A DNA stretch of 64,000 nucleotides from Escherichia coli (GCF_044324785.1 NZ_CP172127.1); one strand, 5' to 3'. Positions 2,691-37,967 are shown, numbered from the stretch's first letter. Notes: generated from the sequence alone by a model not told the origin. Program-made: numbers and translations.

Positions 2691-2763
2691 AACATTTAAG
2701 CTGATGACCACCGCGCTTTTTATTGACCATTTTGCACGCAAACTGGAAAACCTGGCGTCGTCA

Positions 2764-2774
2764 TCTATTCTTAA
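2764..2774 (+). promoter_or_regulatory. Sigma-S type extended -10 element for sdsR
   Basis: TCTATTCTTAA matches the RpoS extended -10 consensus (TCTATACTTAA) at 10 of 11 positions, placed to start transcription at about 2778. Confidence 0.5.
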
Positions 2775-2777
2775 AGG

Positions 2778-2881
2778 GCAAGGCAACTAAGCCTGCATTA
2801 ATGCCAACTTTTAGCGCACGGCTCTCTCCCAAGAGCCATTTCCCTGGACCGAATACAGGAATCGTGTTCGGTCTCTTTTTA
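2778..2881 (+). ncRNA. sdsR: sRNA SdsR (RyeB), RpoS-dependent
   Basis: Sequence GCAAGGCAACTAAGCCTGCATTAATGCCAACTTTTAGCGCACGGCTCTCTCCCAAGAGCCATTTCCCTGGACCGAATACAGGAATCGTGTTCGGTCTCTTTTT recognised as SdsR; ends in hairpin CCGAA..TTCGG plus T-run; about 104 nt. Confidence 0.7.
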
Positions 2882-3014
2882 TCTGTTAAAAGCCAGAAGC
2901 ATTCCCTTCGCTGACTTTATAGTCAACCATAACACACACTCTACTGTCTGAGTCCAGCGTTTTTTAACATTCTTGTTAAGATTATGTGATCTTTAGCGCG
3001 GGAGGAAAATATTG

Positions 3015-17723: not shown

Positions 17724-18392
17724 TCCTTCCTCAATCTTGAGTAACCCCGTCGTTGAAGGGTTACTCAATTCATCCTGATTATACGCACTGCCATGGTGCA
17801 ACTGCTTCAAATTAAAACTCTGGTCTGACTTCAAATAATTATCATATTATTTATTTGCGTAACGGGATATCAGAAAAAGATATTTAGCCCATTAATTTAT
17901 TAGGATGTTTACATCGGATTTGTGATTAAGTGTGGTATTATTTATTAGCGAAACGTTTCTCTCTTGATTTTTTTGCGCATTCATCAATTTTTCTTATTTT
18001 AAATTTACAATACCTTTGGCGATTGACTTCTCTTTGGGGTGATTGATAGCCGTTAACTGACTGTTTTATGAGAAAAAGTGATATAACTTTTTATTCATTG
18101 CATAGCAGAAAATGTGATATTGCACGCACTATGTAATAACTTCTCCCATTGGCCTGGAACAACTGAACTTATTGAACTATGTTAGAAAATACGTCAGTTT
18201 AAGTATCTGCCTGAACTGGCAAGGTTAAGCACAATGATATATCGGCGCGTATTCCGTTGCATAAGTGTGCAAAAAAAGTGGAAGACGTATCGAGATTTGT
18301 GCGTCTGATCGAGACATGTTTAAAAATGGCTTGCCATAATTAACGTTGTATGTGATAACAGATTTCGGGTTAAACGAGGTACAGTTCTGTTT

Positions 18393-18536
18393 ATGTGTGG
18401 CATTTTCAGTAAAGAAGTCCTGAGTAAACACGTTGACGTTGAATACCGCTTCTCTGCCGAGCCTTATATTGGTGCCTCATGCAGTAATGTGTCAGTTTTA
18501 TCTATGTTATGCCTGCGGGCGAAGAAAACAATCTAA
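18393..18536 (+). CDS. yobF: Small protein YobF (47 aa), co-transcribed with cspC
   Basis: Hand translation [47 protein letters not shown]; stop 12 nt before the cspC start. Confidence 0.8.
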
Positions 18537-18548
18537 GGAATTTTTCAA

Positions 18549-18758
18549 ATGGCAAAGATTAAAGGTCAGGTTAAGTGGTTCAACGAGTCTAAAGGTTTTG
18601 GCTTCATTACTCCGGCTGATGGCAGCAAAGACGTGTTCGTACACTTCTCTGCTATCCAGGGTAATGGTTTCAAAACTCTGGCTGAAGGTCAGAACGTTGA
18701 GTTCGAAATTCAGGACGGTCAGAAAGGTCCGGCAGCTGTTAACGTAACAGCTATCTGA
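18549..18758 (+). CDS. cspC: Cold-shock-family protein CspC
   Basis: 69-aa [72 protein letters not shown] with RNP1/RNP2 motifs. Confidence 0.95.
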
Positions 18759-18803
18759 TCGAATCCACTGATCTGAAGTGTGAATACGCTTCAATCTCGC
18801 TAT

Positions 18804-18830
18804 AAAGCCTCGTCGAATGCGAGGCTTTTT
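18804..18830 (+). terminator. Intrinsic terminator after cspC
   Basis: aaagcctcg-tcgaatg-cgaggctttttt hairpin plus T-run. Confidence 0.8.
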
Positions 18831-18923
18831 ACTTTGCTTTCTCTTCGCTCCAGTCGTTCGGATATTTGCCCGCCGCGTGATTCGCGTTACACTTGCGGCC
18901 TTTAGTATCCTGCCGGAGTTGTC

Positions 18924-20296: not shown

Positions 20297-20525
20297 GACA
20301 ACGTCCTGACCGGGGTATCCATAAAACACATCATCGCCCCCAGCAAACATGCATACATGAACGACAAACCGCGATGGTTTTCGCGTTCATGCAGGCATAG
20401 CGATTGATGTGCATATGGTCTCGCCTGACTGAAAGTGTTCAGTCCGTACGTGCCACGTTTTGCAACGAGTATGTTGACACGTACATTTCCGGAATCTGGA
20501 AATCGGCTACTCCCCAAATGAGGGC
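20297..20525 (-). ncRNA. mntP 5' leader containing yybP-ykoY-type Mn2+ riboswitch
   Basis: Minus-strand leader contains the hallmark motif TTGGGGAGTAGCC (plus-strand 20507-20519 region) and an ...AGACCATATGCACATC... segment; known long Mn-responsive mntP leader. Confidence 0.6.
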
Positions 20526-22964: not shown

Positions 22965-23936
22965 TTACTTATCGATTTTGCTGATCAGATCCATCATTTT
23001 CAGTTTCGGATCGGTGGAAACCTTACGGACTTCCAGCTCAATACCGCGCGCATTCAGTTTCTTGAACGCCTCGATATCTTTTTCATCAACCGAAACCGCG
23101 TTATTCACCTGGGTTTTACCCTGACGGAATGCCATACCACCGACGTTAACAGAGGTGATTTTCACGCCGCCTTCAACGAGACGCTCTACATCTGTTGGGT
23201 TGGTAAATAACAGCATTACACGTTCGCCAGCATATTTCGGGTTGTTGTAGACGCGAATCATTTTGGCAACATCAACTACGTGTGCTGTTACGCCCGGAGG
23301 TGCAACCTGGGTGAGCAGTGTCTTACGAACGGTATCCGCAGCCACTTCATCACTAACAACAATAATACGGGAGACATTGGTTTCTTTGGTCCAGCGGGTG
23401 GCGACCTGACCGTGAATCAGACGGTCGTCGATACGCGCAAGGCCAATAACCATGTAGTCGTTTGGCCCCATTGGTTTTGCCGGAGTTGGAGCCGCTTTTG
23501 GTGCTGCGGCAGCGGGTGCTGGCGCAGCTTTTTCAACCGGTTTGGCTTTCAGTGCTTTCACGCCTTCACGGCCTGTTTCTACTGCCAGCGCAACCAGTTC
23601 ATCAAAGCTTGGGTCATCATCACGGGCCATTAACGTTTCCACGAGCATTGGAATGTTAACGCCTGCAATGACTTCATAATGCTCTTTGTCGACGACAATG
23701 CGGCTGGCAGCATTGAACGGGCTGCCTCCCCATGTATCAACGAGAAACAGCACGCCTTTAGTGGTGTCGAGTTTTGCCAACTGAGCGTTGTACTTTTCAA
23801 TCAGCGTTTCGGCATTTTCACCTGGAACGAAATCGATCCAGCCGACGTTTTCCTGCTCGCCTAACAGCATTTCTGCCGTTTTAAGCAACTGCTCTGCAGC
23901 CCAACCATGTGTGCCTATAACAATAGCAATGGTCAC
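22965..23936 (-). CDS. manX: PTS mannose-specific EIIAB component
   Basis: 323-aa ORF MTIAIVIGTHGWAAEQLLKTAEMLLGEQENVGWIDF... with Ala/Pro-rich hinge (KAAPAPAAAAPKAAPTPAKP) between the IIA and IIB domains. Confidence 0.9.
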   Translation of the reverse strand: MTIAIVIGTHGWAAEQLLKTAEMLLGEQENVGWIDFVPGENAETLIEKYNAQLAKLDTTKGVLFLVDTWGGSPFNAASRIVVDKEHYEVIAGVNIPMLVETLMARDDDPSFDELVALAVETGREGVKALKAKPVEKAAPAPAAAAPKAAPTPAKPMGPNDYMVIGLARIDDRLIHGQVATRWTKETNVSRIIVVSDEVAADTVRKTLLTQVAPPGVTAHVVDVAKMIRVYNNPKYAGERVMLLFTNPTDVERLVEGGVKITSVNVGGMAFRQGKTQVNNAVSVDEKDIEAFKKLNARGIELEVRKVSTDPKLKMMDLISKIDK

Positions 23937-24050
23937 TTGCTACCTCCTTTATTATCGTTAACACCTCAACGTGCCAGATGTATTTTTGAATCGTCGTCCA
24001 CAATCGAATCGATTCAGATAAGGGCTACAACCAAAAACCCCTGCGTTTCG

Positions 24051-24101
24051 CGATTTATTTTAGATATCGAAAAAATTATTTTATGTGATGAAGATCCGTA
24101 A
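24051..24101. promoter_or_regulatory. Candidate Mlc/NagC-type operator and CRP-like half-site in the manX-yoaE divergent region
   Basis: TTATTTTAGATATCGAAAAAATTATTTTA (A/T arms around a central CG) followed by TGTGATGAAGATCCGTA; manX is a known Mlc/CRP target. Pattern-based only. Confidence 0.3.
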
Positions 24102-24398
24102 TTTAACTTTCGATTAGCAGAAATTTCGAAAGGTAAAATATCCTTGTCACATTCGTTTGCAAAGGAAGGTAAATCTTTGCCAAATCAGAGGCGTCTCTGA
24201 TATGTTTAACTCCCGTTTAACAACCATGGAGTATAGGGCAGTAGCCCGCAGTATGGATCGTCACCGACGTCATTTCAGCATCAGGCCTTTTAACGCCTGC
24301 CTTTCTGGCACTCTATGCCGCACCTTTCGTTTGCATTTTGTCGTTACGCCTGCATTATTTCTGGCGTCGAATAGCTATTCCTTAAGCAGGAGCTTGTC

Positions 24399-25955
24399 AT
24401 GGAATTCTTAATGGACCCCTCAATTTGGGCGGGGCTACTCACGCTTGTTGTTCTCGAAATTGTGCTGGGTATCGATAACCTGGTCTTCATCGCCATTCTT
24501 GCTGACAAACTGCCGCCAAAACAACGCGATAAAGCGCGTTTGCTGGGATTATCACTGGCGCTGATTATGCGTCTGGGGCTGCTGTCGCTGATTTCATGGA
24601 TGGTCACGCTGACCAAACCGCTATTTACCGTCATGGATTTCTCCTTCTCCGGACGTGACCTGATTATGTTGTTCGGGGGAATATTCTTGCTGTTCAAAGC
24701 AACAACCGAACTGCATGAACGGCTGGAAAACCGCGATCATGATTCCGGTCACGGTAAAGGCTACGCCAGTTTCTGGGTGGTCGTCACACAGATCGTCATC
24801 CTTGACGCCGTCTTCTCGTTGGATGCGGTAATTACGGCAGTAGGGATGGTTAACCATCTGCCAGTGATGATGGCGGCGGTAGTGATTGCGATGGCGGTTA
24901 TGCTGCTGGCATCGAAACCGCTGACGCGATTTGTTAACCAGCATCCAACGGTGGTGGTGCTCTGTCTGAGCTTCCTGTTAATGATTGGTCTGAGTCTGGT
25001 GGCAGAAGGTTTCGGTTTCCACATTCCGAAAGGTTACCTGTATGCCGCGATTGGCTTCTCGATCATCATCGAAGTGTTTAACCAGATTGCGCGTCGCAAC
25101 TTTATTCGTCACCAGTCGACTTTGCCGCTGCGAGCGCGTACTGCCGATGCCATCCTGCGTTTGATGGGCGGGAAACGTCAGGCCAATGTTCAGCACGATG
25201 CCGATAACCCGATGCCGATGCCGATCCCGGAAGGTGCATTTGCCGAAGAAGAACGTTACATGATTAACGGCGTACTCACGCTGGCGTCGCGTTCTCTGCG
25301 CGGGATCATGACGCCGCGCGGTGAAATAAGCTGGGTTGACGCTAATCTCGGGGTCGATGAAATCCGCGAGCAGCTGCTCTCCTCACCGCACAGCCTGTTC
25401 CCGGTATGTCGCGGTGAACTGGATGAAATCATCGGAATCGTACGTGCTAAAGAACTGCTGGTGGCGCTGGAAGAGGGCGTTGATGTGGCGGCGATTGCTT
25501 CGGCGTCTCCGGCGATTATCGTCCCTGAAACCCTCGATCCGATCAACCTGCTGGGCGTGCTGCGTCGTGCTCGCGGGAGCTTTGTTATCGTGACCAACGA
25601 GTTTGGTGTGGTACAAGGCTTGGTCACGCCGCTGGATGTGCTGGAAGCCATTGCGGGTGAATTCCCGGACGCTGACGAAACGCCGGAAATCATTACTGAT
25701 GGTGACGGCTGGCTGGTAAAAGGCGGTACAGATTTGCATGCCTTGCAGCAGGCGCTTGATGTTGAGCACCTTGCCGATGACGATGATATCGCGACGGTCG
25801 CGGGCCTCGTGATCTCGGCAAATGGTCACATTCCCCGTGTGGGCGATGTGATTGATGTAGGTCCACTGCATATCACCATCATTGAAGCCAATGATTATCG
25901 TGTTGATCTGGTTCGCATTGTTAAAGAGCAACCGGCGCACGATGAAGATGAGTAA
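24399..25955 (+). CDS. yoaE: TerC-family membrane protein with CBS/CorC C-terminal domains, YoaE
   Basis: 518-aa ORF: N-terminal polytopic TerC-like half, C-terminal soluble CBS-pair and transporter-associated region. Confidence 0.9.
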
Positions 25956-25958
25956 GCG

Positions 25959-27557
25959 TTAACGTAACGGCATAACGGGCGTGATATGTCCATTATGCCG
26001 GGCGGGCGGCGGTTGGCTGCCCGCCAGCCATTTGGGAAAATCACGTAGCGGCATCGGCTGTGCGTACAAATACCCTTGCAAAATATGCACGCCATGACGG
26101 CGCAAATACTTCGCCTGTTCTTGCGTTTCCACGCCCTCCGCCACCAGTTCAATATTCAGTCTTTGCCCCAGCGCGATGATGATATCGGTCACCGTCGAGT
26201 TAACCGCGTCAGAACCTATAGCTGCGGTAAATGACTTATCAATTTTCAGCACGTCAGGACGTAATGTTTCAAGCCAGGAAAACGAGCTGTTGCCGGTGCC
26301 GAAGTCATCAATCGCCAGTTTGACGTTTTTACGATGCAGCTCGCGGGCAATCCGATAATCCACATCCAGTAAGGCATCGCGTTCGGTGATTTCGAGGATC
26401 AGTTGCTGAATCGGGTGAGCGCTAAACCAGTACTGATTGAGATCTTTTATCAGCACACCACGGCGAAAATGGCTGGGTGCGACGTTAATGCCAACATGAA
26501 ACTGACTACTCATAGGGAAAACATGGCGCTGACGAATGGTTTCTGCCATCACATAGCGGGTCAGTGGCACAATTAAATGATGTTCTTCCGCGATAGGAAT
26601 AAACACATCCGGTGAAATCCAGCCCTGACGCGGATTGTTCCAGCGCAGCAAAATCTCTACACCAATACATTGCTGGCTGCGCGCATTAAGCAAAGGCTGA
26701 CAGAACAATTCGAACTCATGTTGCGCCAGGCCCAGATTGATTTCACGGGAAAAACTCATCCGGTAAGCGGTCGCCAGCCAGGCGATATAGCCCACAAGTA
26801 AACTTAGAAGCACCGCCAGCGGTAATTGTGTTGGAAGATAGTGCCATGCCAGCGCCGTAGCCCCCGGACCATTAACGTTAATGGTAAAAGGAAAGCGTTG
26901 CGAAGAAACCTGATAGTTTTCATTGTCTTCAGGTTGCGGAAGGGTATCTACCAGCCCATTACCATAGAGCAAATGCCGATTGTCCACCGTCAGGCTGGCG
27001 CTACTGATTTGCGGCAGTTGTGGCTCAAGCAGCATTGCCGCCAGTAAGTCGATGTTAATCATCTCCATGACCCCAGCATTGCTACTGCCCGCTGCTGGCG
27101 TCCATTGAATCAAAACCGGACTGCCTTTAATCAGGGCACGGTCGATCGTCAGGCGTAAAAGTGGTTGCGGTGCAGGAAGTTCAGCCAGAATGTCCACGAC
27201 GGGCACATTGCGATAACCAAAAATGCTGGAGCAATAAAGTGTGCCGTCTTGCACCAGGCCAATGGATCGCACAGTTTGGAGTTTTGCCGCCTGTTTACGT
27301 AATGGCAAATGGGCGACAGAGCAGGGCAGACCAATTAGCGGAAGTAAGACTTCGCTACCTGCCTGTAGGGGAAGCAGTACTTTATCTAATTCCTCTACAG
27401 CGTGATTGGCGAATTGTACTACCCGTTGTTGATTTAAGTTACGCTGTGAAATAAATCGCACGCTCAGGGTCGAAGCGAGCGTAACGAGTGCGCAAATCGT
27501 ACAAACAATCATTCGATTACGGCGATAGGTTTTAATGATCCGTTGTGCTTTTTGCAT
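25959..27557 (-). CDS. pdeD: c-di-GMP phosphodiesterase PdeD (YoaD), CSS-motif sensor plus EAL domain
   Basis: Track ORF 25959..27587 trimmed to MQKAQRIIKTYRRNRMIVCTI... (532 aa); EAL-domain motifs EITER, DDFGTG and QGYLY visible. Confidence 0.85.
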   Translation of the reverse strand: MQKAQRIIKTYRRNRMIVCTICALVTLASTLSVRFISQRNLNQQRVVQFANHAVEELDKVLLPLQAGSEVLLPLIGLPCSVAHLPLRKQAAKLQTVRSIGLVQDGTLYCSSIFGYRNVPVVDILAELPAPQPLLRLTIDRALIKGSPVLIQWTPAAGSSNAGVMEMINIDLLAAMLLEPQLPQISSASLTVDNRHLLYGNGLVDTLPQPEDNENYQVSSQRFPFTINVNGPGATALAWHYLPTQLPLAVLLSLLVGYIAWLATAYRMSFSREINLGLAQHEFELFCQPLLNARSQQCIGVEILLRWNNPRQGWISPDVFIPIAEEHHLIVPLTRYVMAETIRQRHVFPMSSQFHVGINVAPSHFRRGVLIKDLNQYWFSAHPIQQLILEITERDALLDVDYRIARELHRKNVKLAIDDFGTGNSSFSWLETLRPDVLKIDKSFTAAIGSDAVNSTVTDIIIALGQRLNIELVAEGVETQEQAKYLRRHGVHILQGYLYAQPMPLRDFPKWLAGSQPPPARHNGHITPVMPLR

Positions 27558-36236: not shown

Positions 36237-37922
36237 TTGAAGAAGGTTTGGCTTAACCGTTATCCCGCGGACGTTCCGACGGAGATCAACCCTGACCGTT
36301 ATCAATCTCTGGTAGATATGTTTGAGCAGTCGGTCGCGCGCTACGCCGATCAACCCGCGTTTGTGAATATGGGGGAGGTGATGACCTTCCGCAAACTGGA
36401 AGAACGCAGTCGCGCGTTTGCCGCTTATTTGCAACAAGGGTTGGGACTGAAGAAAGGCGATCGCGTTGCGTTGATGATGCCTAATTTATTGCAATATCCG
36501 GTGGCGCTGTTTGGCATTTTGCGTGCCGGGATGATTGTCGTAAACGTTAACCCGTTGTATACCCCGCGTGAACTTGAGCATCAGCTTAACGATAGCGGCG
36601 CATCGGCGATTGTTATCGTGTCTAACTTTGCCCACACTCTGGAAAAAGTGGTTGATAAAACCGCCGTTCAGCACGTAATTCTGACCCGTATGGGCGATCA
36701 GCTATCTACGGCAAAAGGCACGGTAGTCAATTTCGTTGTTAAATACATCAAGCGTCTGGTGCCGAAATACCATCTGCCAGATGCCATTTCATTTCGTAGC
36801 GCCCTGCACAACGGCTACCGGATGCAGTACGTCAAACCCGAACTGGTGCCGGAAGATTTAGCTTTCCTGCAATACACCGGCGGTACCACTGGTGTGGCGA
36901 AAGGCGCGATGCTGACTCACCGCAATATGCTGGCGAACCTGGAACAGGTTAACGCGACCTATGGTCCGCTGTTGCATCCGGGCAAAGAGCTGGTGGTGAC
37001 GGCGCTGCCGCTGTATCACATTTTTGCACTGACCATTAACTGCCTGCTGTTTATCGAACTGGGTGGGCAGAACCTGCTTATCACTAATCCGCGCGATATT
37101 CCAGGGTTGGTAAAAGAGTTAGCGAAATATCCGTTTACCGCTATCACTGGCGTTAACACCTTGTTCAATGCGTTGCTGAACAATAAAGAGTTCCAGCAGC
37201 TGGATTTCTCCAGTCTGCATCTTTCCGCAGGCGGAGGGATGCCTGTTCAGCAAGTGGTGGCAGAACGTTGGGTGAAACTGACTGGACAGTATCTGCTGGA
37301 AGGTTATGGCCTGACCGAGTGTGCGCCGCTGGTCAGCGTTAACCCGTATGATATTGATTATCATAGTGGTAGCATCGGTTTGCCGGTGCCATCGACGGAA
37401 GCCAAACTGGTGGATGACGACGACAACGAAGTACCACCGGGTCAACCGGGTGAGCTTTGTGTCAAAGGACCGCAGGTGATGCTGGGTTACTGGCAGCGTC
37501 CGGATGCTACCGATGAAATCATCAAAAATGGCTGGTTACACACCGGCGACATCGCGGTGATGGATGAAGAAGGATTCCTGCGCATTGTCGATCGTAAAAA
37601 AGACATGATTCTGGTTTCCGGTTTTAACGTCTATCCCAACGAGATTGAAGATGTCGTCATGCAGCATCCTGGCGTACAGGAAGTCGCGGCTGTTGGCGTA
37701 CCTTCCGGCTCCAGTGGTGAAGCGGTGAAAATCTTCGTAGTGAAAAAAGATCCATCGCTTACCGAAGAGTCACTGGTGACTTTTTGCCGCCGTCAGCTCA
37801 CGGGCTACAAAGTACCGAAGCTGGTGGAGTTTCGTGATGAGTTACCGAAATCTAACGTCGGAAAAATTTTGCGACGAGAATTACGTGACGAAGCGCGCGG
37901 CAAAGTGGACAATAAAGCCTGA
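36237..37922 (+). CDS. fadD: Long-chain fatty acid-CoA ligase FadD (TTG start)
   Basis: Track ORF 36171..37922 trimmed to TTG-initiated (M)[25 protein letters not shown]... (561 aa); AMP-binding motif [11 protein letters not shown] present. Confidence 0.9.
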
Positions 37923-37940
37923 GCGTTAAGTCAGTCGTCA

Positions 37941-37967
37941 GACGCCGGTTAATCCGGCGTTTTTTTT
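37941..37967 (+). terminator. Intrinsic terminator after fadD
   Basis: acgccgg-ttaat-ccggcgt hairpin followed by TTTTTTT. Confidence 0.85.

Follow-up and report, generated by a model that had tools for sequence, protein, structure and literature searches.

yoaE of Escherichia coli is the orthologue of Salmonella mgpA. We consider it probable that the gene encodes a TerC-type Mg2+ efflux protein gated by its CBS-CorC tail, that its promoter is controlled by CpxR and PhoP, and that its translation is coupled to that of an overlapping upstream ORF (uORF), yoaL. The identity of the gene, its architecture, the uORF with its positive effect, the binding of CpxR and PhoP and the Mg2+ phenotypes of Salmonella are either published or computed here; Mg2+ as the transported ion, gating by the tail, the position of the promoter and the mechanism of coupling are what we infer. 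Since the gene has already been characterised, its function is not a novelty: the main point is in print, this is a known gene and an ordinary finding, and a modest residual interest lies in the leader, with its conserved uORF, its frozen six-codon start, its covarying hairpins and a promoter integrating CpxR and PhoP. What is new here is the presence of yoaL across the 79/79 Enterobacteriaceae loci in which the leader is retained, its frozen MDRHRR start with an invariant CGA codon, and its variable, C-rich and G-poor body containing covarying hairpins. This anatomy gives a concrete basis for studying the induction of the gene by high Mg2+ at neutral or alkaline pH.

Identity of the gene and its neighbourhood

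The window, a 64,000-nt stretch of the E. coli chromosome (GCF_044324785.1, NZ_CP172127.1), carries a 518-aa ORF that is yoaE (mgpA), as RefSeq annotates it at a locus with the identical protein (Table 1). The gene is found in 5423 of 5426 E. coli genomes. On one side of it lie cspC, rlmA, mntP, yobD and manZYX; on the other side, within the window, yoaL-yoaE is followed by pdeD, sdaA, nudL and pabB. The gap upstream of yoaE measures 462 bp and is common to the divergent manX. The E. coli and Salmonella YoaE proteins are 91-92% identical over their full length and have the same neighbours; this identity, a gene order kept in 67/67 loci and a yoaL frame in 79/79 leader-retaining loci place the gene in the MgpA orthologue group. 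The likeness to Salmonella mgpA extends to the TerC-CBS-CorC architecture, the mntP-yobD-manZYX / yoaL-yoaE / pdeD neighbourhood, the leader ORF, the CpxR site and the PhoP box. A protein homologue search returned only near-identical Enterobacteriaceae proteins and added little.

Table 1. Features of the yoaL-yoaE locus, in window coordinates.
Feature	Coordinates	Strand	Basis and details
CpxR site GCAAAggaagGTAAA	24159..24173	+	directly upstream of the -35; homologous to the Salmonella footprint
Predicted sigma-70 promoter of yoaL-yoaE	24177..24206	+	promoter scan; -35 TTGCCA (24177-24182), 18-nt spacer, extended -10 TGaTATGTT (24198-24206)
PhoP box TGTTTAactccCGTTTA	24203..24219	+	overlaps the predicted -10 hexamer
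SD-like GGAG (24228-24231) and hairpin GGGC-AGUA-GCCC (24236-24247)	24228..24247	+	alignment, pair counts
yoaL uORF, 52 codons (MDRHRRHFS...SWNS)	24253..24411	+	RefSeq; published tagging, ribosome profiling
First six yoaL codons, ATG GAY CGT CAY CGA CGY (MDRHRR), frozen	24253..24270	+	codon counts, 79 loci
Mini-hairpin H2, CGUC/GACG, in yoaL codons	24259-24269	+	pair counts
Hairpin H3 in yoaL body	24282-24299	+	local-hairpin test
Hairpin H4 in yoaL body	24307-24319	+	local-hairpin test
Hairpin H5 in yoaL body	24346-24367	+	local-hairpin test
yoaE Shine-Dalgarno AGGAG	24388..24392	+	read from sequence; 6 nt before ATG 24399
yoaE (= mgpA) coding sequence	24399..25955	+	ORF listing, RefSeq
TerC membrane domain	24438..25007	+	residues 14-203; Pfam PF03741, E 9.1e-47, model 1-177 of 178
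CBS pair, presumed nucleotide/Mg2+-ATP sensor	25305..25655	+	residues 303-419
CorC_HlyC 'transporter-associated' domain	25698..25928	+	residues 434-510; Pfam E 5.5e-17

The membrane domain and its cytosolic tail

A preliminary description of this DNA had read the ORF as a TerC-CBS-CorC fusion, and this reading is borne out: Pfam returns a TerC domain, a CBS pair and a CorC_HlyC domain. The PF03741 match spans nearly the whole model, which makes YoaE a member of the TerC family, and the CBS pair, composed of two weak Pfam matches (residues 303-358 and 370-419) and followed by CorC_HlyC, forms a tail of the CNNM/CorB type. The membrane part differs from that of the CNNM, CorB, CorC and PaeA proteins, cation and polyamine exporters of DUF21-CBS-CorC organisation, in which DUF21 stands in the place taken by TerC in YoaE. 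Indeed, YoaE gave no Pfam match to the CNNM/DUF21 domain (PF01595), and the NCBIfam models for PaeA, CorC and PRK11573 align only with residues 278-515, far under their cut-offs; only the tail thus justifies the RefSeq name 'CNNM family cation transport protein YoaE'.

The TerC membrane domain is shared with Alx, MeeF/MeeY and Vibrio TerC. However, the Alx-type proteins have no CBS-CorC tail, are controlled by the yybP-ykoY Mn2+ riboswitch and act on Mn2+, whereas YoaE carries the tail, has no riboswitch match in its leader and is associated, in Salmonella, with Mg2+ phenotypes. YoaE also scores under the NCBIfam cut-offs of the TerC subfamilies YkoY (75 vs 138 bits) and YjbE (72 vs 135).

Of 28 homologues, reaching down to 31% identity, 25-26 retain the two intramembrane acidic pairs, E20/D26 and D136/D142, and the TerC helices are modelled with a pLDDT of about 80-90. 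The six-residue spacing of these pairs is that of E86/D92 and D216/D222 in Alx, which are required for Mn2+ export, the equivalence resting on spacing and motif context and not on a direct alignment with Alx. As the pairs are kept with this Alx-like spacing, a cation path through the YoaE membrane domain is plausible. Structure comparison found no solved structure resembling this domain. YoaE would thus be an inner-membrane protein whose TerC-type domain most likely exports a divalent cation from the cytoplasm, and whose cytosolic tail, the CBS pair with CorC_HlyC, most likely serves as sensor or gate responding to a Mg2+-nucleotide.

The transported ion

Mg2+ is the best-supported ion for YoaE. 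The functional data behind this explanation come from Salmonella or Shigella and not from E. coli: the published phenotypes are those of Salmonella, and transport is deduced for both proteins. Iwadate and Slauch (mBio 2025; PMC12421838) renamed the Salmonella gene mgpA and found that, together with CorC, it protects against excess Mg2+. Deleting mgpA alone is without phenotype in Salmonella. When corC is missing as well, Mg2+ starvation leads to a synergistic stationary-phase death that removal of MgtA/MgtB suppresses; the double mutant also fails to grow at pH 8.5 with at least 10 mM Mg2+, accumulates Mg2+, shows egg-white sensitivity and, in mice, is attenuated (PMC12421838). Furthermore, 10 mM Mg2+ raises expression of an mgpA'-'lacZ translational fusion when the pH is neutral or alkaline, and the authors state that they cannot exclude another competing ion (PMC12421838). 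Mg2+ efflux in enterobacteria had long been without a clear molecular player, MgpA/YoaE with CorC being the current best candidate, and MgpA matters for Salmonella virulence and for survival in egg white. For E. coli, plasmid overexpression of yoaE, and independently that of its paralogue yegH, figures in an apparent glycogen-deficient set of an ASKA screen; as far as that listing goes, these data are circumstantial and compatible with Mg2+ loss.

The ion-homeostasis role put forward in the preliminary description has thus largely been tested in Salmonella. Its core stands, as a membrane protein of cation homeostasis with a regulatory CBS/CorC tail has been published in MgpA (PMC12421838), and the ion that fits is Mg2+; the emphasis on Mn2+ does not hold. 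Indeed, MgpA has a minor role in Mn2+ and Co2+ phenotypes, and the loss of CorC/MgpA leads to tolerance and not to sensitivity (PMC12421838). This bears on the view that YoaE is an Mn2+ (or Co2+) exporter working with MntP, with a leader riboswitch sensing the metal, a view that we hold to be distinctly unlikely. The TerC family does include the Mn2+ exporters Alx and Vibrio TerC and the Mn2+-metalation factors MeeF/MeeY, the characterised members (Alx, MeeF/MeeY) handle Mn2+ and not Mg2+, and YoaE retains the intramembrane acidic pairs.

The other arguments for this view are the vicinity of mntP, about 4 kb away, and the long leader. The order mntP-yobD-manZYX-yoaE is invariant in all 67 of the Enterobacteriaceae loci with enough upstream sequence, which is uninformative as a functional test because these loci are close relatives. 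However, three unrelated genes and the manXYZ operon, on the strand opposite to yoaE, stand between the two genes, and an MntP-family neighbour is absent at the 7 more distant homologue loci with readable flanks (full-length homologues sharing 40-59% identity and N-terminal fragments sharing 65-75%). Being fixed in Enterobacteriaceae and missing from these seven loci, the linkage, which had been offered as a functional clue, reflects ordinary synteny, and we rejected it as functional evidence.

The second argument fares no better. A permissive Rfam scan of 23900-24520 gave only noise (snoRNA and SECIS models, E 2.2-7.1), and the scan of the whole window at gathering thresholds gave nothing relevant to the leader. 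The same permissive procedure recovered the mntP Mn2+ riboswitch at 20427-20523 (-) with 41.9 bits and E = 5.6e-10, a riboswitch missed by the default scan because 41.9 bits falls just under the gathering score of 45. With a best E of 2.2 for the leader, no covariance-model match supports the metal riboswitch that had been suspected there (yybP-ykoY Mn2+, M-box, Mg sensor, NiCo etc.), and this candidate was rejected. The long leader, which had been thought of as a metal sensor, is space that holds the promoter region and then the translated uORF yoaL.

Another reading keeps the phenotypes and changes their cause. YoaE would be a TerC-type chaperone delivering Mn2+, Ca2+ or Mg2+ to envelope or secreted proteins, and the Mg2+, pH and egg-white phenotypes would be secondary to envelope defects. 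We find this rather unlikely: Mg2+ builds up in the corC mgpA mutant, and removal of Mg2+ importers rescues it (PMC12421838), for which efflux is the simplest account, and elsewhere the CBS-CorC tail occurs on transporters of cations and polyamines. On the other side, TerC proteins of the B. subtilis MeeF/MeeY type supply metal to exoenzymes during their Sec export and make surfactin export possible (PMC10550928, PMC12096827), yoaE is part of the CpxR envelope-stress regulon and cells require it in egg white, an envelope stress (PMC6952189), and its overexpression confers a slight resistance to HOCl. Export of Mg2+ remains the reading that we prefer.

At the distant loci, one homologue adjoins a gene of the Na+/Ca2+-exchanger family.

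The promoter region

The promoter scan predicts a single sigma-70-like site on the yoaE strand of the gap, with a transcription start at about 24213. Its extended -10 motif, TGnTATGTT, is kept in 71/79 loci; a CpxR-type box, GYAAA-N5-GTAAA, is kept in 76/79, and the strict PhoP box in 58/79, all three at a constant distance from the yoaL ATG. At the position homologous to the CpxR site, Huang et al. (2020) obtained a DNase I footprint of Salmonella CpxR, GCAAAGAGATGT, and CpxR-dependent induction (PMC6952189). In Shigella, a PhoP-box sequence identical to that of the window is bound by PhoP-P in EMSA, and a 25-nt region protected from DNase I is reported to fit the motif (PMC5775216). Transcription would thus start from a promoter that has a CpxR activator site next to it and shares bases with a PhoP box, and the gene would therefore be wired to envelope and alkaline stress and to the Mg2+/pH-sensing PhoPQ system.

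How is PhoP acting on this promoter? The location of its box over the -10 hexamer suggests a repression geometry. Repression by PhoP would explain why high Mg2+ induces the gene unless the pH is acid, and the Shigella phoPQ mutant/WT ratios agree with it (7.1 and 3.2 in log phase, 3.8 and 5.5 in stationary phase; PMC5775216). However, Table S6 of the same paper reports a PhoPQ-dependent 2.55-fold increase at 10 uM vs 10 mM Mg2+, which indicates activation (PMC5775216). The sign of PhoP control is thus contradictory within one data set, and given this PhoPQ-dependent rise at low Mg2+ we downgraded PhoP repression as the main mechanism of the high-Mg2+ induction. Huang et al. refer to the Shigella result with the words 'upregulated by PhoP' (PMC6952189), and the MgpA paper contains no discussion of PhoP or CpxR as regulators of mgpA (PMC12421838).

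The overlapping uORF yoaL

The small ORF yoaL was identified by VanOrsdel et al. (2018) and Weaver et al. (2019), and its translation is established by tagging and ribosome profiling. Replacing its start codon by a stop strongly lowers yoaE-lacZ expression. In the window, the frame closes 10 nt inside yoaE with a TAA (24409-24411) that shares bases with the second Met codon of yoaE (TAATG). For comparison, we fetched 80 loci of other Enterobacteriaceae species, with 85-98% YoaE identity, which with the window makes 81; two of these end too near yoaE to show the leader, so that 79 were counted. The yoaL frame is open in all 79, over 40-55 codons, and in 77 of them its stop falls at position +10 counted from the yoaE ATG (TAATG or TGATG, yoaE codons 4-5), the others being at -5 and +7. 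yoaL is thus a translationally coupled leader ORF, on the evidence of an overlap seen here in 79/79 loci and of a knock-out effect taken from the literature.

Conservation is concentrated at the start of the frame. Codons 2, 4 and 6 vary synonymously, the rare CGA codon is invariant in 79/79 loci, and one clade of 5 carries R3P; from codon 7 on, the peptide varies freely, up to the C-terminal residues that are set by the yoaE ribosome-binding site. The comparison supports the 52-codon form of yoaL, since the in-frame ATGs further upstream, belonging to the original 69-aa annotation, either lack conservation or are cut off by stops. We did not find an MDRHRR-type yoaL upstream of 9 more distant homologues outside Enterobacteriaceae, and among the sampled loci this type of leader ORF appears to be limited to Enterobacteriaceae.

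These features bear on whether YoaL could be a functional small protein, for instance a partner or regulator of YoaE, the overlap serving merely for co-expression. YoaL is translated and detectable when tagged, and its frame is open in every lineage examined. However, apart from the six N-terminal residues and those dictated at the C-terminus by the ribosome-binding site, both its sequence and its length vary even between close genera, it has no family match, and the YoaE homologues of the 9 loci outside Enterobacteriaceae do without it. A function of the peptide itself is therefore very improbable.

In the coupling explanation that we favour, the mRNA carries yoaL into the first codons of yoaE, and yoaL has to be translated for YoaE to be made. 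The ribosomes of yoaL would be likely to act by being delivered to the yoaE start or by opening it, and/or they would shield the C-rich, G-poor leader from Rho. The need for yoaL can accordingly be given three candidate reasons: termination-reinitiation at the overlap, melting of weak structure, and Rho protection.

Structure and composition of the leader RNA

The yoaL start region has an unusual ribosome-binding arrangement. The Shine-Dalgarno-like GGAG is separated from the yoaL AUG by 21 nt, which hold the invariant GGGC/GCCC hairpin; the invariant alignment columns of this segment are G16, G17, G19, G24-G26, C33 and C35, and its helix (helix 1) shows 100% pairing and a single compensatory change. 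Ribosome-binding sites in which a hairpin in the spacer brings a distant Shine-Dalgarno sequence near the start codon are a known type, which the GGAG-hairpin-AUG arrangement would seem to resemble. Just downstream, the frozen codons contain the mini-hairpin H2, and constraint on the peptide and on the RNA are inseparable here because the invariant third positions, U24261 and A24267, are precisely those paired in H2.

Alignment folding with RNAalifold on 77 leaders gave merely 15 weak pairs (-7.2 kcal/mol), owing to the poor alignment of the variable middle, and we therefore used a test of hand-specified local hairpins. In the five specified helices, 83% of the cells are paired, vs 31-43% when the partners are slid by 1-3 columns, and 90 cells show double changes, vs 37.9 ± 7.4 in shuffles (0/500 reach the observed value); these figures are optimistic, as the helices were picked by eye from the same alignment. 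Covariation is clearest at columns 109/115 (A-U to G-C) and 146/174 (C-G to U-A). The body of yoaL is made of 33% C, 31% U, 19% G and 16% A, and the C/G ratio lies between 1.23 and 2.60 in all 77 leaders. This composition is compatible with that expected of a Rho loading (rut) site, in the same region where the covarying hairpins lie.

The yoaE start itself does not seem to be masked by a conserved structure. The GGAG of its Shine-Dalgarno sequence is invariant in the 77 aligned leaders, the predicted mean P(unpaired) of the Shine-Dalgarno/AUG region is about 0.49, and the pairing partners differ between genera. Shuffled sequence folds as well as the E. coli leader does (z = -0.21), and z-scores for this leader and three of its sub-segments range from -1.09 to +0.41. 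With an intermediate accessibility, no common partner and z-scores near those of shuffles, a conserved helix masking the yoaE Shine-Dalgarno sequence is unsupported. In E. coli, a weak AUUCC/GGAAU helix is predicted, with the Shine-Dalgarno sequence within its inner loop.

yoaL and the leaders of Mg2+ transporter genes

Leader ORFs are familiar from Mg2+ transporter genes, such as those with mgtL and corL, where their translation alters downstream expression. Like mgtL-mgtA, mgtP/mgtM-mgtCBR and corL-corA, yoaL-yoaE associates a short translated leader ORF with a gene of Mg2+ homeostasis whose expression it affects, and its leader shares with theirs a C-rich, G-poor composition that may allow Rho loading. 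Unlike them, yoaL has a positive effect, overlaps the downstream start and goes with a response to high and not to low Mg2+; it also differs from the mgtL-type leaders in having no proline-rich or acid-rich sensing motif and no match to a Mg2+-sensing RNA. In its overlap and translational coupling, it resembles the uORF of pssL-pssA.

Could the response to Mg2+ and pH be set mainly at translation, the MDRHRR/CGA start of yoaL, which lies between two mini-hairpins, sensing cytoplasmic Mg2+, polyamines or tRNA status? We regard this as possible and doubtful, the authors of the MgpA paper having raised the same idea (PMC12421838). Expression of yoaE-lacZ depends positively on yoaL translation, and MDRHRR is maintained through synonymous variation across 79 loci (R3P in one clade) while the remaining peptide is variable. 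The Shigella mRNA is up at low Mg2+ and the Salmonella translational fusion is up at high Mg2+, although the species and assays so compared differ. In a tgt mutant, which lacks queuosine, no protein is depleted more than YoaE, and Asp and His codons stand at the beginning of yoaL. Against this, YoaL has none of the acidic or proline-rich motifs of known ribosome-destabilising leaders, and, as the invariant third positions coincide with those paired in H2, the conservation of the start may be at the RNA level.

In a tentative and somewhat speculative form of this idea, yoaL would be a 'high-Mg2+ ON' translational sensor, in which initiation or early elongation in the start region is set by Mg2+, a polycation or tRNA status. 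If this is true, only ribosomes completing yoaL would allow the Mg2+ exporter to be translated and/or keep Rho off its transcript, and transcription driven by PhoP or CpxR would pre-load an mRNA that is translated only once Mg2+ becomes excessive, a mirror image of mgtL-mgtA.

Two minor observations concern the spread of the leader. Its segment occurs once per E. coli genome, and a paralogous copy elsewhere, for example upstream of yegH, was accordingly rejected. At one of the distant loci, an unrelated short ORF ends in TGATG at the start of the yoaE homologue.

The yoaL start codon and queuosine

For the upstream ORF yoaL, originally annotated with 69 aa, the preprint by Weaver et al. places the likely start 13 codons downstream of the annotated one; the conserved methionine of MDRHRR, which is also the one chosen by RefSeq, lies 17 codons downstream of it (window 24202-24255). 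In the 69-aa version, the first ATG falls within the predicted -10 hexamer of the yoaL-yoaE promoter. The N-terminus M-D-R-H-R-R-H (codons 1-7, 24253-24273) carries Asp and His codons, which are Q-decoded, and YoaE is the most depleted protein in a queuosine-deficient E. coli tgt mutant (log2 -1.87, PMC9508795). Together, these two observations raise the possibility that the two are linked at translation, by way of the uORF.

One distant TerC-CBS-CorC homologue, in the retrieved locus L089 (about 1510-1550 in its own coordinates), has an unrelated 12-codon ORF, MYDYRSCNFWSS, in front of it; the TGA of this ORF and the main ATG overlap (TGATG). The case is a hint that the gene family may have acquired stop-start-coupled uORFs independently. 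A further distant homologue, in L085 (24-995 and 1092-2639), lies directly downstream of a gene of the Na+/Ca2+-exchanger family.

The yoaL-yoaE region has 5423 matches in E. coli, one of which is on a record typed as plasmid, not chromosome; the replicon may have been mis-typed, or a plasmid may carry a large piece of the chromosome.

Control of yoaE by PhoP

The published PhoP-yoaE data are mutually contradictory (PMC5775216, Table 4, Table S5, Table S6). Repression by PhoP is implied by the phoPQ mutant/WT ratios, which run from 3.2 to 7.1, whereas in low Mg2+ yoaE rises 2.55-fold in a PhoPQ-dependent manner. When these data are cited in a later publication (PMC6952189), the wording is simply 'upregulated by PhoP'. 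In the window, the PhoP box (24203-24219) overlaps the predicted -10 hexamer of the promoter.

Neighbouring features

The ends of yoaE and the convergent pdeD (yoaD) are just 3 nt apart (window 25953-25961), which makes an intergenic terminator impossible, so that each transcript must terminate within the opposite gene. The known riboswitch of the mntP leader scores slightly under the Rfam gathering score of 45; it is therefore missed by a default whole-window Rfam scan, and an E-value scan alone shows it.

Coordinates of features in the window and in retrieved locus L001
Feature	Position	Strand or orientation	Remark
yoaE stop	25953-25955	+	window coordinates
pdeD (yoaD) ORF end	25959	convergent to yoaE	window coordinates
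Mn2+ (yybP-ykoY) riboswitch, mntP leader	20427-20523	-	Rfam match, 41.9 bits
Hypothetical ORF, 40 aa	L001 1992-2114		directly upstream of and overlapping mntP; RefSeq annotation
yobF-cspC region, Rfam cspA thermoregulator model	18373-18833	+	139.7 bits
SraC/RyeA and SdsR/RyeB	2740-2884		present in window
sroD	37881-37966		present in window

In an E. coli ASKA screen, 58 clones caused a glycogen-deficient phenotype (PMC2853380); yoaE and its TerC-CBS-CorC paralogue yegH, each overexpressed, are apparently among them, in a table whose heading lies outside the excerpt.
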